A stretch of DNA of 64,000 nt from an uncultured delta proteobacterium (GCA_963745835.1 CAVUZH010000003.1:1376001-1440000), one strand, 5' to 3'; positions 29,522-53,774 are shown, counted from the stretch's first letter. Program-made: numbers and translations. The notes: generated by a model from the sequence alone, not told the origin.

Positions 29522-30559
29522 TCACCGGATTACCTTATCTGCTCTTGCGAGAACCTCCGGCGGGATGATCACGCCGATCTGCTTCGCGGTCTTTAGATTA
29601 ACGACGAGTTCGAACTTCGTCGGCTGCTCGACCGGCAGCTCGGCCGGTTTGGCACCCTTGAGTATTTTGTCAATCATCGCCGCGACACGCTTGAAGGCTT
29701 CGGTCTCATCGGCCCCGTAGGACATCAACCCACCGTTGTCCACAAAGTCCTCGCGATAATAGATTGCCGGCAGACGATACTTTGCTGCCAGGTCGATGAT
29801 CCGTTTTTGGATGGCGCTTGTTTGAGACAAGCGGTGCCGGGTTACTGAAAGAGCCGTGCTTCCCGCTTTGACCGCCTCTTTGAAGCCGCTCTCGTAGTTT
29901 TCGCTGCTGCCAATCTCCATTGAATGAATTTGCAGCCCAAGTTGCCGCGCAGCTCGCTGGCTTTCGGCCCACTGAGGCTCGCTACTTCCAGAGCTTGGGT
30001 ACCATAAGACAGCGACGCGCGAGAGTTTGGCTATGGATTCCTTGAGTGCTTCCACTCGTTTCCCTGCCAAGACATCCGCCAGGGAATAAAATCCCGTCGT
30101 GTTTCCTCCCGGCCGCGCCACACTGGCAACCAAGCCGCGTGCAACTGGATCGAAAGGAGTATCAGTAAAGACAATCGGGATTGTTTTTGTAGCCTTCTTG
30201 GCGGCCAGACCGTCATTTGGACCGCCCGCAACGATGACATCGACTTTAAGGCGCACCAGCTCATCCGCCAAACCAGGAAGCCGCTCGGGCTTCTCTTCCG
30301 CATAGCGGCGCTCGAAGACAATGTTCTTACCCTCTACGTAACCGAGTTCCCGCAGTTCCCGTCGTAGTGCCTCGATGCCGAATGTACTGGAAGATGATCC
30401 CCCGCTGAGTCTTCCTATACGATAAATTTTTCCCTCTTGCTGCGCGTTCGCATAAGGGCATAGCACAAAGAGCAAACCCATCAGTGCCAGACAATAAACT
30501 TCTCGCCTTTGTGATCTTTCGATCCAGAATCGACAATCCAAAATCGAAAATCGCTTCAC
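29522..30559 (-). CDS. ABC transporter substrate-binding protein (ABC_sub_bind/COG2984), array member 21
   Basis: LGYVEGKN, ARPGGNx[17 protein letters not shown]...[19 protein letters not shown]. Confidence 0.9.
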   Translation of the reverse strand: MKRFSILDCRFWIERSQRREVYCLALMGLLFVLCPYANAQQEGKIYRIGRLSGGSSSSTFGIEALRRELRELGYVEGKNIVFERRYAEEKPERLPGLADELVRLKVDVIVAGGPNDGLAAKKATKTIPIVFTDTPFDPVARGLVASVARPGGNTTGFYSLADVLAGKRVEALKESIAKLSRVAVLWYPSSGSSEPQWAESQRAARQLGLQIHSMEIGSSENYESGFKEAVKAGSTALSVTRHRLSQTSAIQKRIIDLAAKYRLPAIYYREDFVDNGGLMSYGADETEAFKRVAAMIDKILKGAKPAELPVEQPTKFELVVNLKTAKQIGVIIPPEVLARADKVIR

Positions 30560-31560
30560 TTGATCACCTTGTCCGCCCGCGCCAATACGCTAGGCGGAAT
30601 CATCAAACCAATCTGCTTCGCGGTTTTTAAGTTGATCACAAGCTCGAACTTCGTCGGCTGCTCCACGGGAATATCGGCGGGCTTCGCTCCTTTGAGAATT
30701 TTGTCGACGTAAGTGGCGGCGCGTCGATAGAGTTCAGGTACATTCACTCCGTAGGACATCAATCCACCGGAATTTACGAACGCATCCGTCCAATAGATCG
30801 CAGGCGTTTTGGTTGCGATCGCCATTGAAACTAACTGCATCCGGTGACCAGCGAAAAACTGACTCGATATCAGGGTCATGGCGTCTAGGCGCTTTTTCAT
30901 GAGAATCGTGGGCAGTTCTTGGACATCCTTAAGCTCGCGCGCGTTAAGAATTTCCACCTTCACCCTTCTGCCGTGCGTCACTCGCTCGACCTCCTTTAAT
31001 TGCGGAGCGCTAATCGGATCAGACGGGTTAGTAAGCACCCCGATCAGCTTCGCCGAGGGGAAAGTTTCCATTAGAAGTTCTGTGCGCTTGCCGCTCAGCT
31101 CGACATTCATGTTGGTGAGGCCCGTCAGATTTCCGCCGGGATTGGCGAGGCTCGCCACCATTCCGGCACCTAGAGGATCAGCAACTAAGGCAAAAACGAT
31201 CGGCGTTGTCGGCATCGACTTCTTGGCAGCCAGTGCCGCGGGCGTAGAGGATGCTAGAACTACATCCGGTTTGAAGCGATCGATCTCTTCGGCCAGCTCG
31301 GCAAGCCTGCCTGCGCGGCCCTCAGCGTTCCAGAGCTCGATTGTAGCGTTTTGGCCGGCGACGTAGCCGAGACGATTCAGCTCTTCGAAAAAAGACTCCA
31401 TATTCGCGCGTTGTTGATCATAGGCGAAAACTGCTATGCGCAAGATTTTGCCTGGCGCCTGCGCCTGAGCGTAAGCACAAAGGGCAAAGAGCAGAGCGCT
31501 CAGGCAGGTAAGCGCAAAGAACAAAGCCCGAAGCCGAAAAGAAATAATGTCTCTGTTCAT
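30556..31560 (-). CDS. ABC_sub_bind protein, member 20
   Basis: Same motifs, intact. Confidence 0.9.
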   Translation of the reverse strand: MNRDIISFRLRALFFALTCLSALLFALCAYAQAQAPGKILRIAVFAYDQQRANMESFFEELNRLGYVAGQNATIELWNAEGRAGRLAELAEEIDRFKPDVVLASSTPAALAAKKSMPTTPIVFALVADPLGAGMVASLANPGGNLTGLTNMNVELSGKRTELLMETFPSAKLIGVLTNPSDPISAPQLKEVERVTHGRRVKVEILNARELKDVQELPTILMKKRLDAMTLISSQFFAGHRMQLVSMAIATKTPAIYWTDAFVNSGGLMSYGVNVPELYRRAATYVDKILKGAKPADIPVEQPTKFELVINLKTAKQIGLMIPPSVLARADKVIK

Positions 31561-31602
31561 GATCCTTTTACTATGCTGTTGCCTAATGGCTATTACCTGC
31601 TG

Positions 31603-32616
31603 TTATCGAATCACCTTATCCGCTCTGGCCAACACATTCGGCGGAATCGCCAGGCCAACCTGCTTGGCGGCATTTAAGTTTATCGCCAGCTCAAACTTTG
31701 CCGGTTGTTCGACCGGTAAGTCGCCCGGCTTCGCGCCTTTTAAAATCTTGTCGACATAAATAGAGAGGCGCCTGAAAACCTCGAGATCATCGGTTGCATA
31801 CGACATCACGCATCCGGCATCTACGTACTGCCGGGCCTCGCACATCGAAGGCAGTCGATTCTTTATGGCCAGATCTGAAATTTGCCTCATATGCGGCCCG
31901 AGCACGGCATGACTCACCGTAATTAGCGCCTGTACTTTTCTCTGAATCGCTTCTCGAATTGCGCCTGCCAAGTCAGGATTCGGACGGGTCACCTGCAGCG
32001 ATTGGAGCTGTATCTTCAACGCTTCGGCAGTAGGCTCGTAGCTTTGGAACGCGGTTCCTATACCTAGTGCAGTCGGGCGGACCCAAAGAACGCCGACGCG
32101 AGAAATCGATGGGATGATCTCCTTGAGTATCTCCAACCTCTTTCCACTCAGGTCGCGAGTGAGGCGCGCAATCCCGGTGACGTTTCCGCTCGGACGCGCT
32201 AGGTCGTCAACTAAACCGGTGGCGACCGGGTCCTGATTGGTCACCATAACAATCGGGACGTTCTTAGTGGCCTGCTTGGCAGCACGGACTGAGGTTGGAT
32301 CTACGGCTATGAGAATATCGACCTTCAGTTGCAGAAGTTCCTTAACCAGATCGGTAGGCTCGAATTTCCCATCGGAGTGGCGGGACTCGATCACGATGTT
32401 TTTTCCTTCAACGTACCCGAGATCTCGCAACCCATCCTGCAGTGCTTTGAACTGCCGCGGTATGGGGGCGCCGGCGCTTGGCAGATAACCAATCCTTGGA
32501 ATTCTCTCCGGCTGCTGCGCTTCGCTAAACGAGCAAAGCGCAAACAGCATAGTGGCAAGAGTAAAACAAAAAACTTTCTTGTTCTTCGCAAAATCCAAAA
32601 ACGAAAATTGAATCAC
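31603..32616 (-). CDS. ABC_sub_bind protein, member 19
   Basis: Same motifs, intact. Confidence 0.9.
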   Translation of the reverse strand: MIQFSFLDFAKNKKVFCFTLATMLFALCSFSEAQQPERIPRIGYLPSAGAPIPRQFKALQDGLRDLGYVEGKNIVIESRHSDGKFEPTDLVKELLQLKVDILIAVDPTSVRAAKQATKNVPIVMVTNQDPVATGLVDDLARPSGNVTGIARLTRDLSGKRLEILKEIIPSISRVGVLWVRPTALGIGTAFQSYEPTAEALKIQLQSLQVTRPNPDLAGAIREAIQRKVQALITVSHAVLGPHMRQISDLAIKNRLPSMCEARQYVDAGCVMSYATDDLEVFRRLSIYVDKILKGAKPGDLPVEQPAKFELAINLNAAKQVGLAIPPNVLARADKVIR

Positions 32617-33605
32617 TTGATCACCTTGTCCGCTCTCGCCAGCACACGCTGCGGAATAGTCACGCCTATTTGCTTCGCAGTTTTAAGATTAATCGCCAAT
32701 TCAAACTTGCTCGGCTGCTCTATGGGAAGGTCGGCAGGCAGGGCGCCTTTCAGAATCTTATCCACATAGACGGCTACACGACGGTAGCTGTCCGCGAGGT
32801 CTCCCCCGTAATATATCAGCCCGCCGGCCTCTACCGCTTCTCTGTTGTTGTAAATCGATGGCAACCGTCTTCTTATTGCGTAACCGGCGATCCGTTCATA
32901 GTTACCAGAGATTCGCGTCCCGGAGAGTACATAAAGAGCATCCGTGCGCTCCTTGTTAGACGTACCGAATGCTCGCTCGAAACCGTCTGCGTCTGGTACC
33001 TCCCAAGGCTGAACAGTTAATTTCAGCACCCGTGCTGTCTCTGGGAGGATCTCTTTCACCTCGCGTACCTGGGACGTATTGGCCGGATCGTAGAGAACCG
33101 CGACACGGGCAATCTTCGGAACCACTTCTTTGAGTAGCTCCAGACGCTTACCGCCCAGTTCTCTGGCAAAGTTTGTAAGGCCGGTGACGTTCCCACCGGG
33201 TCGGGCAAGGCTTTTAACCAGCCCTGCCTCAACGGGATCGGACCCGCCCATCATAACGATGGGAATGGTATTGGTCGCATTCTTGAGCGCCCGCGCGGGA
33301 TTGTTTCCTCCATCTACTATAACGATATCAACCTTCAGACGCACCAGCTCGGCCGCAAGCTCAGGAAACCGATCGCGCTTCCCCTCCGCGTACCGGTATT
33401 CGAACGCGATGTTCTGTCCTTCTATGTAGCCTAACTCGCGCAGCGCGAGCCGAATTCCCTCAGAATCGGCGGATTCACTATTGGGGGTGCCCGGCATTAA
33501 ATATCCTACTCGGTGAACTTTCTTTGGCTGCTGCGCATCGGCAACATGGACACTGTTCATGGTAAAGACAATCACCAGAAGAACAGTTGCGGAGTTCTTT
33601 TTCAC
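32613..33605 (-). CDS. ABC_sub_bind protein, member 18
   Basis: Same motifs; GTG start overlaps the TGA of an orphan stub. Confidence 0.9.
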   Translation of the reverse strand: MKKNSATVLLVIVFTMNSVHVADAQQPKKVHRVGYLMPGTPNSESADSEGIRLALRELGYIEGQNIAFEYRYAEGKRDRFPELAAELVRLKVDIVIVDGGNNPARALKNATNTIPIVMMGGSDPVEAGLVKSLARPGGNVTGLTNFARELGGKRLELLKEVVPKIARVAVLYDPANTSQVREVKEILPETARVLKLTVQPWEVPDADGFERAFGTSNKERTDALYVLSGTRISGNYERIAGYAIRRRLPSIYNNREAVEAGGLIYYGGDLADSYRRVAVYVDKILKGALPADLPIEQPSKFELAINLKTAKQIGVTIPQRVLARADKVIK

Positions 33606-33696
33606 TTGATCACCTTGTCCGCCCGCACCAGTACGTTCGGCGGAATCGCCGTACGACTTTAGATTTTGGATTTTCGATTTTGGATTGTTCGATCAT
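33602..33696 (-). repeat. 91-bp gene-less unit (heptamer tract plus SBP 3'-end stub)
   Basis: ATGATCGAACAATCCAAAATCGAAAATCCAAAATCTAAAGTCGTACGGCG + ATTCCGCCGAACGTACTGGTGCGGGCGGACAAGGTGATCAAGTGA; near-identical to 52136-52231. Confidence 0.9.
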
Positions 33697-34745
33697 CGGA
33701 TTACCTTATCTGCTCTGGCTAATACAGCTGGTGGGATCGTCACGCCGATCTGTTTGGCAGTTTTTAAGTTGATCACGAGCTCGAATTTAGTGGGCTGTTC
33801 GACCGGGAGATCGGCCGGCTTGGCGCCCTTGAGGATTTTGTCTATGTAAATAGCCGCCCGGCGTTGCAGATCGCCAAGGTTAACACCGTAGCTCATCAGG
33901 CCACCTGCGTTGACAAAGCCTTGTCTTACAAACACTGCCGGCAGCCGGCTTTTTGCGGCGTGATCTGCAACCGATTTCGGATCAACGTTGAATATGGGGC
34001 CGCCGAGCACGAGGATCGCATCAGCTCGAGCGCTACGCGCGTCTCGAAACGCGCGGTCGACTTCTTTCGGATGGCGCACGTCTACATACTGAAGTTGTAC
34101 TCTGAGTGCGGCGGCGGCGCGTTCTGTCTCCTTAAGTCCTTCAGCATCGCCCGGATTGTTTGAAGAACCTAGGACTGCGACATGAGATAGGCCAGGAAGG
34201 ATCTCCTTCAGAAGCTCCAGCCTTTTTCCGCTTACCTCGGGGCGGACTGTGGACAACCCAGTAATATTTCCGCCGGGTCGTGCTAGGCTTGCGATGAAGC
34301 TGCTGGCGACAGGATCGTTATCCTGGAGCATAACAATCGGAATCCTAGTCGTAGCCGCCTTGGCAGCGCGGGTTGCCGTTGAACCGCCGCTTAGAATAAC
34401 GTCGACCTTCATACGAACCAGCTCGGCAGCCATTAGAGATAGCTGATCCGGCTTCCCCTCCGCATGCCGGTACTCAAATGCGATATTCTGCCCTTCGATG
34501 TAGCCTAGCTCACGTAAACCTTCTTTAATCTGCGCAAGACCGCCACCTGTTAAGGAAACGGTACTCGCATACAGGAACCCCAATTGTGGGATTTTTTCCG
34601 CTTGTTGCGCCTGAAGCGGAAGGCAAATCGTCAAGAGCAAACCGCTCAATAAAAGATAAAATACATTGTGCCGTCTTGTTCCAATCCACAATCCAAAGCA
34701 TGTCCTGAGCCATGCCGAAGGATCAAAAATCCAAAATGGGATCAT
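33693..34745 (-). CDS. ABC_sub_bind protein, member 17
   Basis: Intact; leader contains the DPSAWLRTCF insert. Confidence 0.9.
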   Translation of the reverse strand: MIPFWIFDPSAWLRTCFGLWIGTRRHNVFYLLLSGLLLTICLPLQAQQAEKIPQLGFLYASTVSLTGGGLAQIKEGLRELGYIEGQNIAFEYRHAEGKPDQLSLMAAELVRMKVDVILSGGSTATRAAKAATTRIPIVMLQDNDPVASSFIASLARPGGNITGLSTVRPEVSGKRLELLKEILPGLSHVAVLGSSNNPGDAEGLKETERAAAALRVQLQYVDVRHPKEVDRAFRDARSARADAILVLGGPIFNVDPKSVADHAAKSRLPAVFVRQGFVNAGGLMSYGVNLGDLQRRAAIYIDKILKGAKPADLPVEQPTKFELVINLKTAKQIGVTIPPAVLARADKVIR

Positions 34746-34872
34746 TTGATCACCTTATCGGCCCGTGCCAAGACGCTAGGCGGAATCATCAGATCAATTT
34801 GCTTGGCGGCTTTGAGATTGATCACCAGCTCAAATTAGTTGGCTGCTCGACCGGCAAGTCGGCAGGCTTGGA
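34742..34872 (-). pseudogene. Orphan 3' end of an ABC_sub_bind gene
   Basis: [41 protein letters not shown] with no gene body; abuts the hicB upstream region. Confidence 0.9.
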
Positions 34873-34953
34873 CCGGATTACTCCCGTTCTCATTTCACCA
34901 CAGCTTGTGATCACAGGAGCGGCTGATATAGCAATTGTAGCTCTGGAGGAATC

Positions 34954-35199
34954 ATGATGCGTTACTCGGTGCTTCTTGAACCCATAAACGAACCAGAGTT
35001 TCAGGGCTACTACTACGCTCATATTCCGACTCTCGACCTGACCACCCATGGCATGGGAATCGAAGGCGCCCTTGGCGCTGCCCAACAGTTGGTCGAGGCC
35101 TGGGTTGAAGAGAAAAGGTCACGTGGCGAAACCGTTCCTGTCGAAGCGAAATCCTTGATTGCACACGTCGAAATTCCGGATGCCGTACTCCGCCCGTGA
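34954..35199 (+). CDS. hicB: HicB-family antitoxin (short form)
   Basis: YSVLLEP...[27 protein letters not shown]....GETVP pattern; GGAGG RBS. Confidence 0.85.
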
Positions 35200-35386
35200 A
35201 GTCCTCGCAAAATTGATTCGCGCCGGCTTTATAGAAGTAAGACAGAGCGGTAGCCATAAAGTCCTGCGGCATCCAGATGGCCGACAGACTTACGTAGCAA
35301 TGCATCCAGGAACGCTGCCAACAGGAACCTTTCGCAAGATTCTTAAGCAAGCCGGCCTGACTGAAGAACAATTTCGGTCGTTGTGA
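35180..35386 (+). CDS. hicA: HicA-family mRNA interferase toxin
   Basis: REVLAKL.RAGF...RQSGSH..LRHPDGR...V.MH...L..GT...ILKQAG. Confidence 0.9.
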
Positions 35387-35423
35387 ATTATCCCATTGTA
35401 AGTAAATTTGGCTGTGCCTCTTC

Positions 35424-35565
35424 TCATCTGATCACCTTATCCGCTCGCGCCAACACATTCGGTGGAATCGCCATCCGATTTTAGATTTTGGATTTTGGAT
35501 CCTTCTACGGAGTTTATTCTGAGAGAGCCGAAGGGCTCAGGAAAGATTTTAGATTGTTCGATCAT
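35424..35565 (-). repeat. Gene-less unit plus stub carrying a ~47-bp palindromic insert
   Basis: Same unit as 33602-33696 with CCTTCTACGGAGTTTATTCTGAGAGAGCCGAAGGGCTCAGGAAAG inserted at GAT^TTT. Confidence 0.85.
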
Positions 35566-36641
35566 CGGATCACCTTGTCCGCTCTTGCGAGCACGTTCGG
35601 CGGGATCGTGAGACCGATCTGCTTCGCGGCGTTAAGATTGATCACCAGCTCGAACTTCGTCGGCTGTTCCACCGGGAGTCGGCAGGCTTTGCGCCTTTCA
35701 GAATCTTATCGACATACGTGGCAGCGCGGCGGTATAAGTCAGGCGATGTTCGCCCCGTAATACATAAGGCCACCCGTGTCTGTCCACTGGACGTTTGGGT
35801 ATATGGCTGGCATACGCGTCTGTTCCACCAGCTCCAAAATCGTTTTTCGGTGAGGAGTTAAACCAAGGTTACCTAAACCGGTAATGAGACCGCCAACACG
35901 CTCCTTAACCATGAGGCGGAATGCGCCCTCAAGATCCGGATTGGGAGTTTTTACCTCTACAAGTTGAAGCCTGACTCCTAAGGCCTGGGCCGTTACCTCC
36001 GCAGCCTGGAATCCGGCTCTATTCGGCGAACTGAGCGGTTCATTAAGGAAGACAAAGCGCGCGATCTTCGGCACCGCCTCTTTCAAGAGTTCCAGTCGCT
36101 TTCCAAGCACCTCCGGGGTGAGGTTTGTCAAACCCGTGACGTTTCCCCCCGGACGGGCCAGACTGGCGACGAGGCCGGTCTCAACAGGGTCAGCACCGCT
36201 TGCCATAATAATCGGAATCGTAGTGGTTACCTTCTTGGCGTGACTGGCCGCCGAGTATGACTCCGCAACAATGATTTCAACCGGGAGTCGAACGAGTTCC
36301 TCAGCCAATGCGGGCAGTCGTTCGAGTCTACCGTCAGCGTACCTGTATTCGATGGTGATGTTTTTCCCCTCGATGTAGCCCAATTCCCGCAAACCTCGAT
36401 GGAAAGCCTCAAGGTTCCGCGGCGCAGGTGCACGGGAATCTGACGGATGAAGATCGCGCGACAGAAAGCCTATCCTGAAAGTATTTTTCGGCTGCTGCGC
36501 CATCGCGGACGGACATTGCGCGAAAAGCATCGCGCTAACCGTTAAACAAAAGGCGCTCAATGGGGCTACGTACCAAAGAATACCACTGATCGTGGAAGGA
36601 TCACTTTGCGTTTCACGCGGCTTGCCTTTCGCCTTCTTCAC
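35562..36641 (-). pseudogene. ABC_sub_bind protein, member 16 (frameshifts near 35742 and 35678; may be sequencing errors)
   Basis: ORF 35739..36641 continues in other frames to ARADKVIR*. Confidence 0.75.
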
Positions 36642-37681
36642 TTGATCACCTTGTCCGCCCGCGCCAACACGTTGGGCGGGACAATCAGACCGATTTGCTT
36701 TGCCGTTTTAAGATTGATCACCAGCTCAAACTTCGTCGGCTGTTCGATGGGCAGATTGGCGGGCTTCGTGCCCTTTAAAATCTTATCTACATAAACGGCG
36801 GCGCGCCGGAAACTCTCCGCATCGTTAGCCGCATACGATACGAGACCACCGCTTTCTACAAAATCCGCTCCCGCTGACATTAAAGGTAGCCGGTGCTTTA
36901 TGGCAAGATCCGCAATTTGGGCTCGATAGTTTACGAGCAGCGAAGTCCTAACTGCAATAATCGCGTTCGCGCGCCGTTTGGCCACTGTTTGAAAAGTATC
37001 CTTGAGATTAGAGCTCGCACCGCGTACTTCCAAGGATTCAAGCGCAATTTTCAGTGCATTGGCCGCGTTTTGATAATTCTCCACCGGTGAAGCCGTATCC
37101 GCTTCCCAAAGAAGTCCGACTCGAGAGATACCAGGGACTACCTCCTTCAGCAGCTCAAGCCGTTTTTCACTTAGATCTCGGGTGAGCCGAGTGAGCCCAG
37201 TAATATTTCCACCCGGTCGGGCCAAGCTATCGACCAGCCCAGTTCTCACTGGATCTTCCGTAATTGCCATGACAATGGGAATTGTCCTGGTCGCTCGCTT
37301 GGCCTCGCGGACAACTCGGAAAGTCGGCGAAACAAGGACATCAATATTGCGCTGGACAAGTTCGGCCACGACGCTAGGGATATTGTCGTCCTTCCATTCT
37401 GCGTGGCGATAATCAATGACGATGTTTTTTCCGTCGATGTACCCGAGATTTTGCATCGCGTGACGGAAAGCTGCAAAATTCGGCGAGGAGGTGGAAGGCT
37501 CGCCACCTCCTGTAACATATCCAATCCGTACGTCTTTTGACTGCTGCGCCTCAACGGAAACATCGGTAGGCAGAAAGAAAGCAAGCAGCAAGCAGTTAAA
37601 GACAAATCTTATCGTCTGTGTTAGAAGTTTCGCTACGCTTGTCTTACTGTCAGCTGCTCTCTGCTCACGACCCGTTGTCAT
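36638..37681 (-). CDS. ABC_sub_bind protein, member 15
   Basis: Intact. Confidence 0.9.
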   Translation of the reverse strand: MTTGREQRAADSKTSVAKLLTQTIRFVFNCLLLAFFLPTDVSVEAQQSKDVRIGYVTGGGEPSTSSPNFAAFRHAMQNLGYIDGKNIVIDYRHAEWKDDNIPSVVAELVQRNIDVLVSPTFRVVREAKRATRTIPIVMAITEDPVRTGLVDSLARPGGNITGLTRLTRDLSEKRLELLKEVVPGISRVGLLWEADTASPVENYQNAANALKIALESLEVRGASSNLKDTFQTVAKRRANAIIAVRTSLLVNYRAQIADLAIKHRLPLMSAGADFVESGGLVSYAANDAESFRRAAVYVDKILKGTKPANLPIEQPTKFELVINLKTAKQIGLIVPPNVLARADKVIK

Positions 37682-39758: not shown

Positions 39759-39765
39759 AATCGAC

Positions 39766-43927: not shown

Positions 43928-44935
43928 TCATTTGATCACTCTGTCCGCCCGCGCGAGCACATTCGGCGGAATCATCAGCCCGATCTGCTTGGCGGTTTTC
44001 AAATTAATCACCAGTTCAAACTCCGTGGGCTGCTCGACCGGTAAGTCTGCCGGCTTGGCGCCTTTAAGAATTTTATCAACGTAAACAGCGACCTTTTGGA
44101 ACCGCCCCTCGGTCTGCGCGCCGTACATCATAAGGCCGCCAAGATCCATAAACGTTCGTTCTAGATAAATCGCAGGTAAACGATTCTTTGCGGCTAGATC
44201 GACGAGCTGCTTACGACGAGGGAGAGGAGCAACTGATGGGATGCGTGCGATAAGGGCATGAACCCGTTCTTTGGCGGCGAGTTGAAAAACGGATTCAATA
44301 TCCTCGTCTCTGCGAACGGGAGAACGGATCAACTGAACTTTCAAGGAGCGGGCGGGCTTCTCTGTTTCCTTCATAAACAAGTCTTCCGATGGAGTTCCGG
44401 GCGCTGGTCCGGGTACAATCACACGCGAGAGCCCGGGAACTATTTCCTTTAGTAGCTCCAAAAGTTTTCCTCCCAAATCTCCGCTAACGCTCGTTAGCCC
44501 CGTTACATTCCCGTCTGGACGCGCAAGACTGGCGACGAGCCCTGTTCTTACCGGGTCGGTGCTGCTCGTCATAACGATCGGGATTACGGTCGTTGCCTTT
44601 TTCGCAGCCAGGGCCGGAGCCGTTCCATCGGCGACGATGACATCTACGTTCAATCGGACCAGATCGGCTGTGAGATCGGTGTACCGCTCGGGTTTGCCTT
44701 CTGTACTCCGAAATTCGAGCGTGACGTTTTTCCCTTCGAAATATCCTAGCTCGTGCAAAGCTTGTAAGAACGCTGGAGAAACAGACGACGCTCCTCCAGC
44801 AAGGTAACCGATGCGATAAAGCTTCCCCGGCTGCTGCCCTTCGATAGACCCGCAGAAGGCAAAGAGCATAGCGCAAAGGGTAAAGCAGAAGACGCTCTTG
44901 CGGACCGTTAAAGACAGACTACTAACCACGTTCAT
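43928..44935 (-). CDS. ABC_sub_bind protein, member 8
   Basis: Start ATG 44935 (MNVVSS) overlaps the upstream TGA; the ORF-track extension to 45133 is an out-of-frame reading of the upstream gene tail. Confidence 0.9.
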
Positions 44936-46028
44936 CGAATTACCTTGTCGGCCCGCGCCAGCATACTTGGCGGAATTGTCACCCCAATTTGGTTGGCCGT
45001 CATCAGATTGATTGCCAACTCGAATTTGGCGGCTTGCTCGACGGGAAAATCGGCTGGCTTGGCGCCTCTTAGGATTTATCGACGTAGAGTGCCGCGCGTT
45101 TGTAACTCTCGGCATCATTGGATGAATACGCAATCAGGCCGCCGGGTTCTATCCATAAGCCCGAGTCATACATCGACGGCAGTTTATATTTGATAGCATA
45201 GTTCACGATTTGCTTTCGGTGACGATTCAGAAGGGAATTACCTATTGTGATCAGAGCTTTCGCTCGTGTTTGGGCAGCAGATTCAAATGCGGCATCCAGA
45301 TTAGGGTCAGGGCCTCGCACCTCTAGAGACTGCAATTGAATTCTTAACGCCTGAGCCGCAGCCTGGTACTCCCGAAAACTTATTTTTGGTCCCTCCGCGC
45401 TTGAATCCCAAAGGATGGCGACGCGCGCAATCCCGGGAATTAGCTCTGTTAGTAACTCCAGCCGTTTCCCTCCTAACTCCCGGGTGAGGCGGCTAACCCC
45501 AGTGACATTCCCCCCCGGGCGAGCCAAGCTATCGACAATCCCCGTCGCGACTGGATCCTGATTGATGACCATGACGATGGGAATTGTCTTGGTCGCCTGC
45601 TTGGCGCTGCGGATCGCGGGGTCGTCGCCAGAGATAAGCACATCGACTTTGAGTTGCACGAGTTCCGCCACGAGGTTTGGAATCCGGTCGCGCTTGCCCT
45701 CGGCATAGCGAAACTCGATCAGAATATTTTTACCCTCAACGTAACCTAGATCTTCTAGGCCTTGGCGAAACGCCTCGACATTAGGGCCCGGAGGAGAAGG
45801 AACGCCAACCACTCTCAGATAGCCTATCCGTGGAACTTTCGTTGGCTGCTGCGCCTGAGCCACAGCCCCACAAAGGTTAGATGCGAAAACGACTGCGAAG
45901 ATCGCCACCCATCTTAGATTTTGGATTTTAGATTTTGGATTGTTGGCAGAAAGAGATTCGGAGCGGATTAGTTTCGTAACGTCTTTTCTGCGCATTCCAA
46001 AATCCAAAATCGTAAATCCAAAATTCAC
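44932..46028 (-). pseudogene. ABC_sub_bind protein, member 7 (one A missing in an A-run at ~45075; probably a sequencing error)
   Basis: YVDK then ILRGAKP...ARADKVIR* in the next frame. Confidence 0.75.
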
Positions 46029-47054
46029 TTGATCACCTTGTCCGCTCGTGCCAGCAAGTTCGGCGGAATCGTAAGGCTGATCTGCTTGGCGGCTTTGAGA
46101 TTGACCACTAGTTCAACGTCGCCGGCTGCTCTACTGGTAGATCAGCCGGCTTCGCTCCTTTGAGGATTTTGTCGACATAGGTTGCAGCGCGGCGTTGTAA
46201 ATCGGCAAGACTAACCCCATAGCTCATCAGCCCGCCTGCATTCACAAAATTTTCCCTGACATAGACCACTGGCAGCCGGCTTTTTGCTGTGCTGCAAGTT
46301 CTTTTGGCTTGACGTTGAATATCGGACCTCCTAACACAAGAACTGCCTCCGCCCGCTCCGCGCGCGCTTCTCGAAACGCTGCCTCAATATCTTTCACACC
46401 ATGCACGTCCAGATATTGAATCTGCAGTTTGAGTGCGCCGGCAGCGAGTTGTGTCTCCTTGAGTCCTTCGGCGTTGCCGGGGTTGTTCGATGAGCCGAGG
46501 ACCGCTACTCGGGAGAGCCCGGGGACGATTTCTTTCAAAAGTTCCAGCCGCTTTCCGCTTATTTCTGGTCGTAGCGTCGATAAGCCGGTAATGTTTCCGC
46601 CCGGCCGTGCTAGGCTGGCGATAAACCCGCTTCTGACAGGATCGTTATCCTGGAGCATGACAATCGGGATGGTGCTGGTGGCCTCCTTGGCAGCACGAGT
46701 CGCCGTAGAGCCGGCCGTAAGAATAACGTCAACTTTTAGCCGGACCAGCTCATCAGCGAAGGTAGCTAAACGATCTAAGTTTCCGCCCGCCTGTCGCCAC
46801 TCGATGACGATGTTCTTTCCTTCCACATAGTCTAATTCGGCCAAACCTTCTTTGACCGCCGCAGGTCTGCCGCTTTCTCCCGGCCCGGTACTTGCCGCGA
46901 GAAAGCCCACTTTAGGGATTCTTGCGGATTGCTGAGCCTGCGCGATCGTGCAAACACCAAAGAGCAGAAGTGCAAAACAGCAAAGCGCGAAGAGCATAAA
47001 ACGACGCAGAGTGTTCTTGCCGACTTTTGATCTCTGACATTGGATCTGTGTCAC
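46025..47054 (-). pseudogene. ABC_sub_bind protein, member 6 (frameshifts near 46290 and 46115)
   Basis: Close paralogue of member 17; tail KSRLPVVYVRENFVNAGGLMSYG...ARADKVIK* is out of frame. Confidence 0.75.
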
Positions 47055-48046
47055 CTGATCACCCTGTCGGCTCTTGCCAGTACGTTCGGTGGAATTATCA
47101 CGCCAATCTGTTTTGCTGTTTTCAGATTGATCACTAGCTCGAACTTCGTCGGCTGCTCCACCGGTAGCTCGGCAGGCTTTGCGCCTTTGAGAATTTTATC
47201 TACGAAAACTGCAGCACGGGCAGCAAGGACTCGATCGTCCGGCGAATAGGAGATTAGGCTGCCTTCCTCTACATACAGATTGGTCTCGCCCATTGAAGGG
47301 AGCTTGTTCTTGATGGCCAGTTCGGCAATTCGCTTTGTGTAAGGATCGAGCACGATATTCGAAAGAGAGATGAGCGCATCAACACGCTCCTTGGTCGCAG
47401 CCCGAAACGCGCCGTCGAGATCCGGGATGGGTCCTCGTACCGGCAAGGATGCAAGCTTTATCTTCAAAGACGGGGCTGCAGCCTCGTACCGCTTAAAACC
47501 CACAGCGAACCCAGCATCCGACCCGTCCGCATTCCAGAGAAGGCCCACGCGCGACACCGCCGAAATCACTTCTTTGAGCAGTTCTAAACGTTTTTCGCTC
47601 AAGTCTCGGGTCATTCTCGTCAATCCAGTGATATTCCCACCGGGTCGCGCAAGACTATCCACATATCCCGCGGCAACAGGATCCTGAGTTGTCACCATCA
47701 CAATGGGAACTGTCTTCGTGGCCTGCTTGAGCGCTCGCATGACTGGGGGAGTTCCAGAGATTATTACATCGACCTTTAGCTGTATTAGCTCAGACACAAC
47801 ACTCGGAATCCGCGCGCGGTCGCCATGAAGATAGCGGTACTCGACGAGAATGTTTTTCCCCTCGGTGTATCCAAGATCGTGCAGGCTCTGCCGAAATGCC
47901 TCAATGCGAGAGCCGGGATTCTTCGGATCACCGATAGACACATACCCTAACAGCGGAACTCTCTGCGGCTGTTGTGCCGCGGCGGAAAACGTGAGCGACA
48001 ACAGCACTGCAGCCAAGCCGAACTGAATGACTCTGCTCGGTCTCAC
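47051..48046 (-). CDS. ABC_sub_bind protein, member 5
   Basis: Intact. Confidence 0.9.
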   Translation of the reverse strand: MRPSRVIQFGLAAVLLSLTFSAAAQQPQRVPLLGYVSIGDPKNPGSRIEAFRQSLHDLGYTEGKNILVEYRYLHGDRARIPSVVSELIQLKVDVIISGTPPVMRALKQATKTVPIVMVTTQDPVAAGYVDSLARPGGNITGLTRMTRDLSEKRLELLKEVISAVSRVGLLWNADGSDAGFAVGFKRYEAAAPSLKIKLASLPVRGPIPDLDGAFRAATKERVDALISLSNIVLDPYTKRIAELAIKNKLPSMGETNLYVEEGSLISYSPDDRVLAARAAVFVDKILKGAKPAELPVEQPTKFELVINLKTAKQIGVIIPPNVLARADRVIR

Positions 48047-49009
48047 TTGATTACCCGATCGGCTCTGGCTAATACATGTGGTGGGATCGTCAGGCCGATC
48101 TGTTTCGCAGTCTTCAGATTGATCGCCAACTCGAACTTACTCGCCTGCTCGACCGGCAGGTCGGCCGGGTTTGCGCCTTTCAGAATCTTATCGACATAAA
48201 ACGCAGCGCGCCGGTAAATTTCGTCTCGATGAGCATCATAGGATGCGAGGCCGCCATCTTCGACAACTGTCACGCTCTCCGACATCAACGGCAGTCGATG
48301 TTGTAGCGCAAGATCGGCGATTTGCTTTCGGTGAACTGAGAGCGAAGGAACACTAGTTGTGATGATTGCGCTGACCCGCTCCTTTACGGCAACTTGGAAA
48401 AGCTTAGGCAAGTCGGCAGTTGGCGCTTGCACTTCGAGGATTTGAAGCGGCACCTTGAGACTCCGCGCCGCATCCTCATAATCTTTAAATGCCCCAAAGC
48501 CCGAAAGAATTCCGACCCGCGAGAGCCGCGGAATCATCGCGGTCAGTAGTTCCAGCCGTTTGCCGCTCAGGTCTCGGGTAGCTGACGTAAACCCGGTGAT
48601 ATTTCCTCCCGGATGCGCCAGACTATTAACCAGACCAGATGCTACCGGATCCGGAGTAATCGCCATGACAATGGGAATCGTTTTGGTCGCCTGCTTGGCT
48701 TCGCGGATGACGATCGCCTGTGTGGAGAAAATGAATATCGACCTTGAGGCGCACGAGTTCGGCGACAATTCCCGGGACGCGAGACCTATCTCCCTCGTTG
48801 TTGCGATATTCAAACAAAATATTTTTCCCCTCAAAGTAACCGAGCTCTTGCAGCTCTTGCCGGAATATTTTGATTCTCGAACTAGGGTCGGTGGCAATGC
48901 CTGTGACGATTCCTATGCGCGGGATTTTCGTAACCTGCTGCGCCTGAACTGTGGAGCACGTGGCAAAAAACAGAGAGCATAGAGTAAGCGAAATAGTTTT
49001 TTTAGTCAT
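48043..49009 (-). pseudogene. ABC_sub_bind protein, member 4 (+1 frameshift at ~48735; may be a sequencing error)
   Basis: ORFs 48626..49009 and 48043..48897 join at LKVDI/IFSTQ. Confidence 0.75.
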
Positions 49010-49056
49010 ACTCGGCTTCCTGTTTCCGATCTCGGACGTCTGACTTCTGGTCCCTG

Positions 49057-50097
49057 TTATCTAATCACCCTATCCGCCCTTGCCAGGATATGCGGCGAAA
49101 TGGTAGCGCCGATCTGTTTTGCAGTCTTTAAATTGATCACCATTTCGAATTTGGTTGGCTGCTCGACCGGAATGTCGGCTGGTTTGGAGCCTTTCAAGAT
49201 CCTGGCCAGGTAGCGCGCGCCATCAAAACCTTCAATGCTGTAGCCCGGTCCATAAGCCATGAGATTGCCGTTATCAGCGTAATCTGCTCGCGCACATATC
49301 GATACCCAGCGGTAACGCATCGCCAGATCGGCGATCCTCTTCTGATTCGAGTTGGCTAACGGGTTTAACGTCACGGCAAGAGCGCCGCTGTGCGCCTTGG
49401 CTGCTTCTTTGAACGCCTCCTCATACTTATCGGCGCTGCTTACCTGCATTGAATGTAGCTGCAGGCCAAGCTCTCGTGCCGGCACTTGGCTGTCTTGCCA
49501 CTGCGGCGCGGAGCCGGGAGCTTGAGGGTCCCATAGCACGGCAACACGGGAGAGCTTCGGAACGATTTCCTTTAGCAGCTCCAGTCGTTTGCCTGCTAAA
49601 ATGGCCGCCATGTTGGTGATCCCCGTGCTATTCCCTCCGGGTCGCGGCAGGCTATCGACCAGTCCCGCGGTAACAGGATCAGTCACGCCCATGAAAACGT
49701 GCGGAATAGTCTTGCTAACACTGCGAGCGGCTTGAGCGGCATTGGTCGTGACGGTTACAAAAACGTCAGTCTTAAGCCGGACAAGTTCGGCTGCAAGCTC
49801 CGGAAGGCGGTCAAAGTTCCGGTCCTCATGGCGATACTCGATAAAAATGTTCTGCCCCTCGATATAGCCGAAATCCCGTAGCGCCTGCCGGAATGCCTCT
49901 TTGCGCGGGGCATCAGCGGCCGGTGATACCGCGGCCAGATAACCGATGCGCGGAACTTTTTTCGGTTGCTGCGCCTCGGCTTCCGTCCAGCACAGCACGA
50001 ATATGACAACTAGGGCGAGCATCCCTGCCAATTTTGGATTTTGGATTGCCGATTTTCGATTGTCGGAAACAGACTCCGAAGGAACCGCGTTCATCAC
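49057..50097 (-). CDS. ABC_sub_bind protein, member 3
   Basis: Intact; leader SDNRKSAIQNPKL is a translated heptamer tract. Confidence 0.9.
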   Translation of the reverse strand: MMNAVPSESVSDNRKSAIQNPKLAGMLALVVIFVLCWTEAEAQQPKKVPRIGYLAAVSPAADAPRKEAFRQALRDFGYIEGQNIFIEYRHEDRNFDRLPELAAELVRLKTDVFVTVTTNAAQAARSVSKTIPHVFMGVTDPVTAGLVDSLPRPGGNSTGITNMAAILAGKRLELLKEIVPKLSRVAVLWDPQAPGSAPQWQDSQVPARELGLQLHSMQVSSADKYEEAFKEAAKAHSGALAVTLNPLANSNQKRIADLAMRYRWVSICARADYADNGNLMAYGPGYSIEGFDGARYLARILKGSKPADIPVEQPTKFEMVINLKTAKQIGATISPHILARADRVIR

Positions 50098-50149
50098 TTT
50101 GTTCTCCTGCTTTCAACCCAAAAGTCTAAATTCGAAATCCAGAATCGGA

Positions 50150-50190
50150 TTACTTGATTACTCTATCGGCTCTTGCCAGCAGGTTGGCTG
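50150..50190 (-). repeat. Orphan SBP 3'-end stub downstream of the nuclease
   Basis: GCCAACCTGCTGGCAAGAGCCGATAGAGTAATCAAGTAA = [12 protein letters not shown], followed by a heptamer tract. Confidence 0.85.
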
Positions 50191-50250
50191 CAACGTCGAC
50201 GTTTGCTTCGCAATCCTTCGCGCTCCAGCAATAGCTTTGCCGTAGCCACA

Positions 50251-51024
50251 TTACTTGAAAATATTATTCAGCAACCACTCCAGCCTCATTCCCGCCTGAG
50301 CCAGCCGTCGTCTGACTATCATGAGAGCGGTTGCCACGTATTCGTCTGACAATTCCATGGATTCTCCAACGGTATAGGCATCGGACCTCGATAAACGAAA
50401 TGATTCGTCAGTCCACGTTTTCGGCTCGCCAGACTGCCATTCAGAGCGTTGCTTCGGTGTAATGCTCTGGTCCAATTTCTTGGCTAGTTCCTCGGCGTTG
50501 CCTTCTTCCATGTCGACGACGTTGAAATCCCAGAACAGATGGAGGTTCTTCGTCTGTCCTCTATAACTCACGGTAATTTCGGTTCCACCTCTATCTTCTC
50601 GCCTACCTGCATGTAGAGGCTGATGCATATCATTTACTAGATGGGCCACGTACCGGAGAGCAATCAGTCGCACATTGATCGGCACCTTAACGTCAGCGAT
50701 AATCGAGGTAAACCAATTTAAAGCCTCAACCATGCAATTTCTTGCTTTACAGTCTCGTTCTTGATCGTAGCCGGCGGCATCATCGGGAATGCTGACGTGA
50801 TGCAGCCGATCGAACTCTGTTATTCGCCTACCTTCCCTGTCAGGCCACACAGCTGCATCGGCCAGTGTCGTGCCATCAGGAAGAAGCTTCCTCACCTCTT
50901 CTCGTGCCTGCTCCGTGAGCTGCGTATCGGCTAAGATAGCTACAATTCGATGGCCCTTGTCGCCCCAGCCGTAGGCTACGTCGCGCAATGGAAGCATGAA
51001 CGCGAATGCAGCAGTAGCCGACAA
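50251..51024 (-). CDS. S1/P1 nuclease
   Basis: Signal then WGDKGH, AVWPD, HLVNDMHQPLH, DRGG and NLHLFWD Zn-binding motifs. Confidence 0.92.
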   Translation of the reverse strand: MSATAAFAFMLPLRDVAYGWGDKGHRIVAILADTQLTEQAREEVRKLLPDGTTLADAAVWPDREGRRITEFDRLHHVSIPDDAAGYDQERDCKARNCMVEALNWFTSIIADVKVPINVRLIALRYVAHLVNDMHQPLHAGRREDRGGTEITVSYRGQTKNLHLFWDFNVVDMEEGNAEELAKKLDQSITPKQRSEWQSGEPKTWTDESFRLSRSDAYTVGESMELSDEYVATALMIVRRRLAQAGMRLEWLLNNIFK

Positions 51025-51047
51025 GGATCAGCTTGTAGATAAACAGC

Positions 51048-51119
51048 TCACCTTGGGCGGAGAATCGCCGTACGACTTTCAGTAGATTTTGCGATTTTTG
51101 ATTTTGGATGGCAGATCAT
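51048..51119 (-). repeat. Degenerate gene-less unit with a truncated stub
   Basis: ATGATCTGCCATCCAAAATCAAAAATCGCAAAATC...GTCGTACGGCGATTCTCCGCCCAAGGTGA. Confidence 0.7.
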
Positions 51120-52083
51120 CGGATTACTTTATCTGCTCTCGCCAGCACATTCGGCGGTATCGTCACGCCGATCTGCTTTGCCGTCTTTAAGTTGATCACT
51201 ATCTCGAACTTCGTCGGTTGTTCCACTGGCATTTCGCTCGGTTTAGCGCCTCTTAGAATCTTGTCTACGTAGACAGCAGCGCGTCTAAAGAGCGCCGGAT
51301 CATCAGCTGAATACGAGATGAGCCCTCCCGCCTCTACGCGAGCGGCCACTTCATGCATAGTCGGCAGTCGGTTTTTGATGGCAAATTGTAGGATCTGCTT
51401 CGTGAAAGGGTTCAGTGTGCGACTTGCAACCGGCATAAGCCCGTTCACTCGTGCTCTCACAGCAGCTCGAAATGCGCCCTCCAGATCGGGTTTAGAACCG
51501 TTTACCTCGATGGATTCGAGCGAAATCTTCAGCAAGCGTGCCGCAGTCTAATAGTCTCGGAAACTCGATGACCCGCGGACCGCAATGATTCCTAAATGTG
51601 ACAGGCTCGGAACCGCCTCCTTGAAAATTCCAGTCGTTTTCCACTTAACTCATGGGTAAGTCTGGCGAGTCCCGTGATATTTCCGCCTGGGCGTGCGAAA
51701 CTATCGATTATGCCTTTCTCCACCGGATCAAAAGAAGCCACCATAACTATGGGGATCGTTTTCGTTGCTTTCTTGGCTTCAACGATTGCTCCTGCACTCG
51801 AACTAACCAGCACATCGACATTAAGTTTTATGAGTTCCTCGACGAAGCCCGAGACTCGATCCGGATTTGTCCCGGGATAGCGATATTCAACGTGGATGTT
51901 TTCTCCTTCGATGTAGCCTAAATCTCGGAGCCCGCGCCGGAAGGACTCGACGAACACGCCGGGATTATTGATGCTGCCACTGCTCGCCGCATATCCAACT
52001 CGTGGTATTCTCGCTTGCTGCTCGGCGTTGAGAAGAGAAACATTGGTCAGAAAAAGGAACCAGAAAACAATCTTGCTAATCAT
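51116..52083 (-). pseudogene. ABC_sub_bind protein, member 2 (frameshift at ~51626 plus in-frame TAG at 51548-51550)
   Basis: ORFs 51592..52083 and 51116..51535; the nonsense codon suggests real decay. Confidence 0.8.
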
Positions 52084-52135
52084 TGCTTCCGTTCCATTTA
52101 AGCTGGTCAGTACTTACCATTACGCTGCTCGACCA

Positions 52136-52231
52136 TTATTTGATCACCTTATCCGCACGTCGCCAGCACATTCGGCGGAATCGCCGTACGATTTTAGATT
52201 TTGGATTTTCGATTTTGGATTGTTCGATCAT
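52136..52231 (-). repeat. 92-bp gene-less unit plus stub
   Basis: Translates as MIEQSKIENPKSKIVRRFRRMCWRRADKVIK*; near-identical to 33602-33696. Confidence 0.9.
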
Positions 52232-53209
52232 CGGATTACTTTGTCAGCTCTACCCAAAACATTGGGCGGAATGGCTACGCCGATCTGCTTGGCCGCTTTC
52301 AGATTAATCAGTAGTTCGAATCTCATGGGAAGTTCCACGGGTAAGTCTGCAGGCTTGGCTCCTTTAATAATCTTGTCGACATAAATTCCCGCACGACGGT
52401 AGAGGTCGCCGTAATTAACCCCATAGCCCATCAGCCCGCCGTCTTCGATAAACTGCCCCGTTTGATACATCGCCGGCAACCGAAGATTTGGTGGCGAGAT
52501 CGACGATTCGTTTTGAATTCAACGTCATCAGCGCGCCCCCCGGTATAACTAGAGCGTCCGGCTGAAGTTGCTTTAAGACGTTCGCGGCGCCCTCGATATC
52601 TCCTGTGCTTCTGACCTCGTGAGGCCGGAGCTGTAGCCCAAGAGCCTTGGCGCCCTTTTTTGCTCCGTCGAGAACCTGCGCTGCAAGCTGGCCAGCTTCG
52701 GGATTCCACAGCATCGCGACCATGGTGATTTTCGGGAACGCCTCCTTGAGCAGATCCAAACGCTTACCCATCATTTCAGGGCCAGCGCTGCTTGATAGTC
52801 CGGTAACGTTTCCGCCTGGGTATGCCAGGCTCTTGACCAAGCCGGTGGCAACAGGATCAAATCCGATGCCTACGATAGGCGTTCGGCTATTTGCCTGAAG
52901 AACAGCGCGAGTGGCGGCAGGCGTAGTTGTAAGAATAACATCAAGATTGAGCGCGACGAGTTCCGTCGCAAGCATCGCCAGTCTGTCCGAACTCCGCTCG
53001 GCATAGCGGTACTCGATAGAAATGTTCTTGCCGTCAACGTAGCCTAAATCTCGCAATCCCTGGTGAAATGATTCCAGATGAGGTTGATCCCTCGACCCGA
53101 AGAACAGAAATCCCAAGCGAGGAATCTTCGCCGGATGCTGCGCCTGGGCCACCTCCCCCCAGGCCGTCAATGTCAGAACGACTGCAAGGAGGCCGACAAT
53201 GTGTTTCAT
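52228..53209 (-). pseudogene. ABC_sub_bind protein, member 1 (+1 frameshift at ~52486; may be a sequencing error)
   Basis: ORFs 52415..53209 and 52228..52479; AGGAGG RBS. Confidence 0.75.
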
Positions 53210-53774
53210 GCCCCTCCTATTTTAGATTTTCGATTTTAGATTGCCGATGGGACGGAAAACTTCCATTTCGCTTCTGATGAGTCTTATACAAGTTCAATGA
53301 ACCGTAATGCCACTAGTTTAGTGCGTTGTTTGAATAAGATTTCGTCCGGCGTGTTCCCGATCTAAACTCGGCAATCGAAAAATTGAAAATTGCTTGATCA
53401 TGGCCATTGCCCCTACCGCAACGGATATGCCACAAAACAAACTCTATGAAAATAATAATTTAGGAACCGCCGAAGTGGTGAGAGGTGGCCGTTTGACTAC
53501 AGGGGAGTATCAGATTTGCTGCGCTACAAGGATCACATCCTCGAGACTGCCTGTCGAGACTGCCTGTGGTCCGATGGAGTGCTCCAACCTTATGAAACAC
53601 GGTCGCGAGATGGCCATGGTCTTAGTCGATCACGCAGCTTGCCTACAGGGCACTCTCACTCCTCACAAAACCCCCTCATAGAATTAAGGCCAGCCGTCGG
53701 GAAACGTTTCTGATGCCGCGGTAAAATCTTGAGGTATCTAGTTATGTGCCGTGCGCCGGCGACGTTGTTGCCTT

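Follow-up and report, generated by a model that had tools for sequence, protein, structure and literature searches.

Junctions of a tandem array of PF04392 substrate-binding-protein genes in an uncultured delta proteobacterium: conserved gene ends, heptamer spacers and a gene-less unit

The DNA analysed here, hereafter the window, is a stretch of 64,000 nt from an uncultured delta proteobacterium (GCA_963745835.1 CAVUZH010000003.1:1376001-1440000; G000:C3:1376001-1440000 in our numbering). On its minus strand, from 53197 to 29525, lie 21 head-to-tail paralogues of the PF04392 (ABC_sub_bind) family of substrate-binding proteins (SBPs), and our subject is the junctions of this array, where the end of one gene meets a spacer, the leader of the next gene or a short gene-less unit. 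A protein profile built from 13 members mapped the 21 full or broken copies, and the five members tested against Pfam scored 91.8-169.3 bits (cut-off 25.9). As assembled, 13 copies are intact and 8 are frameshifted or truncated, and five short 3′ stubs, each the last 15-43 codons of a gene, are found between the array genes. Member 17 scored 139.7 bits against the TrpX equivalog model NF041285, under its cut-off of 390, and is therefore a relative and not an equivalog. A nucleotide profile located 107 SBP 3′ ends in the 7.28-Mb genome, on contigs C3, C19, C22, C24, C14, C13 and C16, most of them in arrays on C19, C3, C22 and C24. The family is also expanded in 18/18 other genomes searched of the same taxonomic family (including the unpublished G012 and G018), and the closest loci elsewhere are mostly from ‘Candidatus Binatia bacterium’ metagenome-assembled genomes of soil and groundwater. 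Paralogue bodies are only ~50% identical and the paralogues are thus old. No orthologous array at useful identity was found among same-genus genomes; the best matches elsewhere reach 79-82% over a single gene, in seven mostly fragmented genomes.

Titles and abstract openings in the literature on Binatota/Binatia SBPs or PF04392 contained no description of such arrays. The available part of one article reports 434 TTT-family SBPs in Rhodoplanes sp. Z2-YC6860 as an orphan SBP expansion (PMC5994714). As far as that part of the article goes, the two cases are alike in having dozens to more than 100 SBP paralogues without a matching number of adjacent membrane components. However, they differ in that the present family is PF04392 and not TctC, and in its head-to-tail arrays, overlapping stop and start codons and heptamer spacers.

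The last 50 codons of the SBP genes, which we call the anchor, share 74-83% amino-acid identity among 59 intact paralogues, and the stretches preceding them 37-59%. Among positions with the same amino acid, the codon is also the same in a fraction of 0.47 for the anchor (expected 0.41) and 0.37 for the body (expected 0.315). The anchor is maintained by protein-level selection and its silent sites are near saturation. As its silent-site excess over expectation is similar to that of the body, the anchor has not been homogenised wholesale, and pervasive concerted evolution was rejected on these grounds. In most SBP genes the codons CCG CCG ... CGG GCG G of the standard anchor could form a 5-bp CCGCC/GGCGG stem (-42 to -38 with -22 to -18, counted back from the end of the stop codon; example, stub 33602-33649). 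This was the sole consensus pairing found; its partners are fixed codon positions, and it is abolished by the silent changes seen before gene-less units.

A gene-less unit consists of reversed (NAAAATC)n heptamers and a 24-45-nt relic of an SBP 3′ end. The initial annotation had observed that every window gene ending in ATCCG(A/G)TGA is followed by such a unit or its remnant, and this was borne out in 5/5 cases with different upstream subfamilies. The ends at 52229, 51116, 35562, 33693 and 29522 read ATCCG(A/G)TGA followed by TC (ATCCGATGA and TC; at 29522, ATCCGGTGA and TC) and then reversed heptamers. At 52229, 35562 and 33693 a stub, ATTCCGCCG...GTGATCAA(A/G)T(A/G)A, closes the unit 91-138 nt downstream, and at 51116 and 29522 only a remnant is present (Table 1). 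Constraining the ten genes upstream of gene-less units in this genome to one clade costs 453 log-likelihood units (approximately unbiased test, p = 6e-95), the ten having been chosen after a first tree was seen, and the trait changes nine times on the SBP tree.

The association persisted in a larger set of junctions, which comprised those of this genome (107, nucleotide profile, last 48 nt) and 198 from 59 of 81 loci in other genomes; 286 were kept, namely those with a stop codon followed by 300 nt or more. In this genome the last codon was CGN before 8/8 reversed-heptamer units, compared with 17/95 of its other junctions (Fisher’s test, p = 4.5e-6). The corresponding values for other genomes were 9/10 and 23/173 (p = 4.8e-7), whilst a looser junction set gave 8/8 in this genome and 13/14 in others. 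Within the window, a regular-expression count gave 4/4 reversed-heptamer junctions and 4/22 others (p = 0.0047), the 29522 end being too degenerate to be counted. The converse rule fails, since 12 of 20 exact ATCCGRTGA ends precede a gene-less unit and 8 do not. Start-codon overlap does not explain the association. The hexamer GGTGAT (-13 to -8) occurs at 33/58 junctions with an overlapping start (57%), at 59/145 with a spacer and 33/65 with no gene called (41-51%), and at 1/18 before gene-less units. Moreover, the motif ATCCGATGA-N5-CAATCYAAAAYC was found in 30/90 genomes of the family and 13/23 genera, with none for a backwards control; the tally includes the unpublished G012, G018 and G065, and is 27/87 without them.

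How far upstream the signature reaches depends on the class of spacer. Across 87 junctions of this genome, leader similarity is tied to columns -6 (z = 5.4), -5 (z = 7.7) and -2 (z = 3.6), with no tie to -7 (z = 1.6), -10 (z = 0.2) or -13 (z = 0.4), and the anchor columns carry little signal of the upstream body. The correlated stretch is therefore, in general, the last codon and the stop, and it extends further only ahead of the gene-less unit; other spacer classes show nothing beyond a stop-codon or last-codon effect. A per-site chi-square comparison of 18 gene-less with 265 other junctions was strong at -6, -5, -10, -13, -19, -22, -25 and -30, weaker at -24, -31, -40, -43 and -49, and absent past -52; the 8 junctions of this genome and the 10 of other genomes each show the pattern on their own. 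The gene-less signature is wholly silent, with TTG/TTA for CTG, GCC/GCT/GCA for GCG and AGA for CGG, and further silent changes in which AAG gives way to AAA/CGA and GTG to GTA/GTT/GTC. Non-standard bases are in excess by 0.77 at -6, by ~0.6 from -13 to -30, by ~0.4 at -31 and -40 and by 0.25 at -46 and -49, and past -55 no excess remains. The depth of the signature varies by copy, reaching ~-24 in member 16 and in locus L018 and -52 in several others. The initial annotation held that the last ~10 nt of each gene track the downstream unit. This is right for the last codon and stop, which track the leader, but too short for the gene-less signature, which fades out to ~-50. A sharp switch had been expected from site-specific recombination and a gradual one from homologous recombination; for the gene-less class the switch is gradual and points to the latter.

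An exact-word scan of the junction windows of the genome revealed mosaic patches. On C19 a tract of 92 nt (-39 to +53), the longest exact repeat in any junction window, begins at -39 in one anchor, crosses the unit and stops at -34 in the next stub. Identity is 74% and 53% in its flanks and 49% between the two gene bodies, which belong to different clades. The gene-less units at 52229 and 33693 (members 1 and 17), which follow unrelated subfamilies, are identical at 68/70 positions from -12 to +58, with flanks of 24-75%. The pairs 51116/33693 and 33693/29522 (members 2, 17 and 21) match at 23/24 positions over the last 24 nt and are 74-77% identical upstream. Leader similarity is weakly correlated with similarity of the downstream body (Mantel r = 0.15, p = 0.002), and no correlation was detected with the upstream body (r = 0.03, p = 0.27). 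Gene-body and downstream histories thus separate within the conserved 3′ end, as the Mantel tests, the last codon and the patches all indicate, which upholds the earlier placing of the crossover inside the anchor. A fixed boundary at A(A/G)GT^RATC, proposed at the same time, is not supported, as patch limits lie at -12, -24 and -39 and the signature decays gradually. Joints between paralogue ends in public contigs (e.g. 30579 to 37706, ~25 nt from the stops) were not counted, because their shorter side is 20-33 nt and joints of this kind in soil metagenomes often stem from other organisms or repeats.

The spacers themselves are repetitive. A 7-nt periodicity was present in the first 28 nt past the stop at 114/283 junctions, compared with 1/283 shuffles, and this and other genomes hold at least nine heptamer types (GATTTTN, GTCAGAG, GGCAACA, CAGTGAG, GCGTGAG, GGAGCAA, GGCAAAA, CTGAGGA and GGAGTAA). 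The last 7 nt of a gene match the heptamer of its own spacer, in register, at 2.54/7 positions versus 2.11 for other spacers (permutation p = 0.0005), and at 2.84 versus 2.35 when the GATTTTN classes are left out (same p). There is no such match at -14 to -8 (p = 0.58) or at -21 to -15. One end, for example, reads ...C AGA TGA and continues CAGAGAT CAGAGGT CAGATGT. Forward and reversed GATTTTN elements are true reverse complements, their internal insert (GTCCTGAGC...GCCGAAGGATC) included, and some heptamer spacers are predicted to be translated as N-terminal extensions. Phase-variable simple sequence repeats are perfect tandem units that differ in copy number between cells or strains; the units here are imperfect. 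One extra T at 43900, in the leader of member 9, was seen in one contig of one public run and could be a sequencing error or a repeat length polymorphism, contigs being prone to miss rare variants. A TctC-family SBP array in the same window has no heptamer spacers. The accessible parts of two articles describe TAACTGA intergenic heptamer repeats in Beggiatoaceae, Cyanobacteria and Bacteroidetes (PMC4679880) and the four-heptamer elements of Geobacter metallireducens (PMC2700814). On what those parts report, they resemble the present spacers in having 2-6 tandem 7-nt copies just 5′ of start codons. However, the spacers here are of at least nine unit types, attached to one gene family, in register with the preceding stop and in some cases apparently translated.

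Two further end classes had been linked to what follows them. Three ATCAAATGA ends (43928, 40818 and 34742) precede TC(C/T)CA..GGATTTT leaders, which is 3/3 in the window, but only 3/9 in the genome, being the same three, and 0/17 in other genomes; they are simply related copies of one leader. Ends in ATCAAGTGA supply the GTG of an open reading frame (ORF) entering the next SBP gene in 7/9 window cases, with 42896 and 39766 as exceptions, but in only 14/27 genome-wide. The leaders after 40818 and 34742 are 83% identical over +1 to +75, and as the sequences on both sides are unrelated, these leaders are patches relative to the downstream gene too. In member 9 the leader (43846-43927, minus strand) and the gene are in different frames, and the N-terminal part is cut off by an in-frame TAA.

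At the 5′ edge of the array, around 53400, the sequence TGATCAAG is present and TTTCGATTGCCGAGTTTAGAT matches the leader of the member 10/11 junction at 20/21 positions, with a local score of 37 (maximum of 31 and mean of 22 in 200 shuffles). No SBP 3′ end was found upstream of it, the protein-profile map beginning at 53197 and the nucleotide-profile search giving no match. A member 10/11-like junction with no SBP before it, as first reported, is therefore confirmed. The further suggestion that 53400 is the entry site of the array was not sustained; what lies there is only the heptamer leader of the first gene, ahead of its ribosome-binding site, and it has no mark of an attachment site. Some SBP genes have their ribosome-binding site and start codon enclosed in a hairpin-like leader, between a forward and a reversed GATTTTN element that form an inverted pair with a spacing of 50-120 nt; such pairs occur in the window (46025-45915 and 53385-53217) and on C19 (401390-401484, 410128-410215 and 417530-417642) and C24 (391824-391934). 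The palindrome of some other genomes has the start codon at its centre, e.g. TTGAATTATGAATTCAA in locus L014.

Taken together, these data probably reflect an old tandem array of paralogous SBP genes, likely of a Candidatus Binatia soil bacterium, in which junction modules have been copied by homologous gene conversion in the conserved 3′ end, combined with heptamers in register with the gene ends; we favour this explanation with some reserve. A junction module would be an anchor end and its spacer, sometimes with the first bases of the next anchor relic, and would be transferred from one array position to another by homologous gene conversion or unequal exchange. The anchor would provide the homology and tract limits could fall anywhere in its last ~50 nt, so that markers near the stop would almost always travel with the downstream module. 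The gene-less unit, i.e. reversed GATTTTN heptamers and a 24-45-nt anchor relic, would be one such module. Its left tract limit would usually lie upstream of the last codon, and hence it would nearly always bring its own ...ATC CGA TGA. At shorter range, the heptamer tract may continue into the last codon and stop, such that the last 6-7 nt would evolve with the spacer. Neither the stop codon nor the final residue (K or R) is fixed, and so both can drift with the repeat tract. Register accounts for the short-range link between last codon, stop and spacer class. We infer that the patches arose by gene conversion, and register sharing would reflect slippage or concerted evolution of the tract.

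Several observations weigh against this explanation. Member 16 (35562) and its sister, member 14, share their anchor to ~-8 and match exactly over 41 nt between -57 and -16, which puts at least one exchange limit within the last 7 nt, where the initial annotation had placed it; member 14 likewise has CGATGA at its end, yet an ordinary spacer comes after it. In size the register effect amounts to a modest ~0.4 of 7 positions. The junctions are mutually related, so the Fisher and chi-square p values overstate their independence. The near-saturation of anchor silent sites means that conversion has been sporadic, not pervasive. Moreover, the gene-less junction is shared across genera, and neutral hitch-hiking from old events should have been erased by now, so that either selection on the make-up or structure of the mRNA end or the continuing spread of a conserved module must be added. 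Lastly, the silent-site signature is often ‘anything but G’ (GTA/GTT/GTC; GCC/GCT/GCA) and not one codon, which looks more like selection on composition than like descent.

This last point leads to an alternative in which there is no sequence transfer and selection on expression signals has tuned the last ~13-50 nt to what follows, an account we regard as possible but doubtful. At overlapping ATGA/GTGA starts, AAG GTG ATC might act as a ribosome-binding site complementary to the 16S rRNA 3′ end, a tentative proposal consistent with the canonical 3′ end of this genome (GGATCACCTCCTTTCT), to which GGTGATC is complementary. Before a gene-less unit a ribosome-binding site would be selected against, and the mRNA kept A/U-rich and unstructured; this too we think rather unlikely, although GGTGAT is nearly lost there (1/18), silent sites accept any base but G, and three different codons are used at -15 to -13, all ending in A. 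The signature also removes the CCGCC/GGCGG stem of the standard anchor, and recurs in other genera despite otherwise saturated silent sites. However, GGTGAT is nearly as frequent at junctions without an overlapping start as at those with one. It is thus mostly a matter of codon preference, and a ribosome-binding site was rejected as the full explanation. Neither the choice of K or R (CGN) at -6/-5 nor that of ATC or ATT at -7 (ATC in 15/18, compared with 10/40 other CGN ends, p = 4e-5) follows from start-codon overlap, and exact shared tracts of 92 nt and 47 nt signify transfer and not convergence. Expression signals were not in excess either. Promoter-like sites numbered 13, where 16.8 were expected, and terminator-like sites 28, where 29 were expected (17 against 15.4 and 11 against 13.6 in shuffles). 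No gene-less unit was among the 28, and an antisense terminator and internal promoters were accordingly rejected. Site-specific shuffling of integron-like mobile cassettes, each a leader with its gene, with a recombinase crossing over near A(A/G)GT^RATC or CGATGA and 53400 as the attachment site, is in our view very improbable. It would suit the common orientation of all units, the CG(N)-stop before every gene-less unit, the 26-nt junction motif conserved across genera, the array edge of ATGATC and leader with no anchor before it, the placing of one limit within the last 7 nt in members 16 and 14, and the sharp stop at ~-7 of the downstream association for general spacer classes. Yet that stop is equally expected from silent-site saturation, the patch limits are scattered and the gene-less signature decays gradually, and old paralogues with ~50% identical bodies are ill-suited to an actively shuffling array. 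The tyrosine recombinase family PF00589 has 13 matches genome-wide. All lie outside the window and off C19, C22 and C24; the nearest on C3 is at 1265887, 110 kb from the window. Pfam scans of 35 flanking ORFs identified one HUH transposase, 9 kb off, and no other recombinase. Nine gene-less units, the one spacer class that was folded, gave z-scores from -1.9 to +1.6 on either strand and so did not exceed shuffles. A structured RNA in the unit was rejected on these grounds, and the sole consensus stem, CCGCC/GGCGG, lies within the stub. Nor did Rfam match anything in the array.

The gene-less unit might instead be a small non-autonomous element that targets SBP 3′ ends and displaces the original end as the stub, which seems to us distinctly unlikely, as does the corollary that it carries its own replacement copy of the last ~15 codons. 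Integrative elements do replace and displace gene ends at tRNA genes. Here, the left anchor copy has its own silent-site lineage whilst the stub retains standard codons, the junction is conserved in 30/90 genomes, the heptamer element, its internal insert included, is found in forward and reversed form alike, and the forward leader is a patch unrelated to both flanking genes. However, just 40-90 nt separate the anchor copies, with no gene, terminal inverted repeats or fold between them. The HUH transposase mentioned above, a REP (repetitive extragenic palindrome)-associated tyrosine transposase (RAYT; Table 1), is flanked by a 22-nt inverted repeat (62240-62261 and 63027-63048) with no GATTTTN unit. 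The core of that repeat occurs three times in the genome, and a REP/RAYT link to the array was ruled out, these repeats being unrelated to the heptamers. Similarity between the left copy and its own stub is 0.49-0.80 (6 units), and not consistently under the ordinary-pair mean of 0.73; avoidance of homology between the two copies of a unit was dropped for this inconsistency. Gene conversion and the element might also be joined. The unit would then be a conserved ~90-190-nt Binatia element, either spreading enzyme-free by anchor-templated conversion or kept as punctuation of the operon transcript, which we put forward tentatively. Such an element would comprise, with the same low confidence, the element-borne last ~15 codons with a silent-site lineage of their own, an invariant ATCCGATGA-YCGAACAATC, reversed heptamers and the displaced gene end. 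As punctuation it could conceivably act on translation or processing of very long SBP operon transcripts. In its broadest form, equally speculative, heptamer spacers and conserved 3′ ends would make up a recombinase-free cassette system reshuffling leaders and SBP bodies.

Gene conversion through conserved flanks is familiar from the pilin loci pilS/pilE and the vls cassettes of Borrelia. Like these, the array shows short mosaic patches bounded by conserved sequence and no dedicated site. However, it has no expression site and no signs of programmed or frequent switching, and near-saturated silent sites indicate that events are rare. With integron arrays it shares many same-direction units and a conserved element on the 3′ side of each. 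It differs from them in that no IntI-type recombinase lies by the array, the nine gene-less units examined have no attC fold, and exchange limits are variable. Furthermore, the array holds no unrelated cassettes; orientation is uniform, yet all units are paralogues of one family with ~50% identical bodies. Arrays of same-direction paralogues with conserved ends should therefore not be taken as integron-like.

Uncultured soil lineages often have large families of orphan SBPs, whose growth is poorly understood. The array would offer a readable record of that growth, in which a 3′ end conserved for the protein doubles as homology for occasional patch conversion, spacers arise as heptamer tracts in register with the stop codon, and a spacer type that includes the relic of a gene end has been conserved in no fewer than 13 genera. 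Were the gene-less module shown to propagate itself or to have a regulatory role, it would represent a novel type of small element bound to a single gene family.

Table 1. Coordinates of the array, its junction features and two other genes in the window.
Feature	Position	Strand	Evidence and remarks
SBP tandem array	29525..53197	-	13-member profile map and Pfam; at least 4 such arrays in the genome
First-gene leader	53210..53400	-	forward heptamers 53385-53360, 116-nt gap, reversed heptamers 53243-53217, AGGAGGGG, ATG 53209
Gene-less unit 1	52136..52243	-	member 1 end ATCCGATGA, reversed heptamers, stub ending in ATCAAATAA at 52136; 92 nt between stops
Gene-less unit remnant after member 2	51040..51130	-	ATCCGATGA then TCTGCCATCCAAAATC...GTCGTACGGCGATTC, broken off before the S1/P1 nuclease gene
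S1/P1 nuclease gene inside the SBP array	50251..51024	-	PF02265, 195 bits
Leader after member 11 (sister of that after the 34742 stub)	40743..40832	-	ATCAAATGA then TCTCACTTCGGATTTTAGATCC...
Gene-less unit after member 16	35424..35576	-	reversed heptamers and 50-nt insert, stub end 35424; 138 nt between stops
Forward heptamer leader after the 34742 stub	34667..34756	-	hairpin insert GATCCTTCGGCATGGCTCAGGACATGC; predicted to form the N-terminus of member 17
Gene-less unit after member 17	33602..33707	-	stub GTGA gives member 18 its GTG start
Array 3′ end	29450..29536	-	ATCCGGTGA then TCGACCAAATTTAAAAACGAAAATTCAAAATCC, degenerate reversed-heptamer tract, no stub
RAYT	62248-62961	-	NF047646, 82.2 bits (cut-off 80)

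The state of the SBP copies is probably affected by assembly. Broken full-length copies number 34/98 in this genome and 26/161 in other genomes; 15 of these 26 (from 35 copies) are in MFD-tagged loci and 11 (from 126 copies) in the rest, the MFD assemblies being apparently long-read, to judge by their contig sizes. At three frame breaks of the window, contigs from independent public runs show single-base indels: three runs do so at 48734, three at 39814/39815 and two at 34834. Many of the ‘broken’ SBP genes are therefore probably assembly errors, which may hold for a third of the apparent pseudogenes. Further indel sites relative to public contigs are found at 42312-42572 and 48989-49052.

Two segments of the array are not of SBP origin. 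The S1/P1 nuclease gene is flanked by the cut-short gene-less unit and by a lone SBP 3′ stub (50176-50150). Between two other stubs there are ~550 nt of non-SBP DNA (34872-35424, minus strand) with an ORF of 139 aa (34952-35371) that had no Pfam or NCBIfam match. Outside the PF04392 array, the window contains a second SBP array of seven consecutive TctC-family (PF03401) paralogues (6938-15233, plus strand) beside a TctB gene (6314-6832), and two more TctC-family copies at 4439-5491 (minus strand) and 55802-56881 (plus strand). Rfam gave one match in the window, at 3746-3830 on the minus strand, to the c-di-GMP-II-GAG riboswitch aptamer (RF03169; 45.5 bits, gathering score 40); it lies upstream of the gene for a 1220-aa Kelch/TIG-repeat protein (23-3685).

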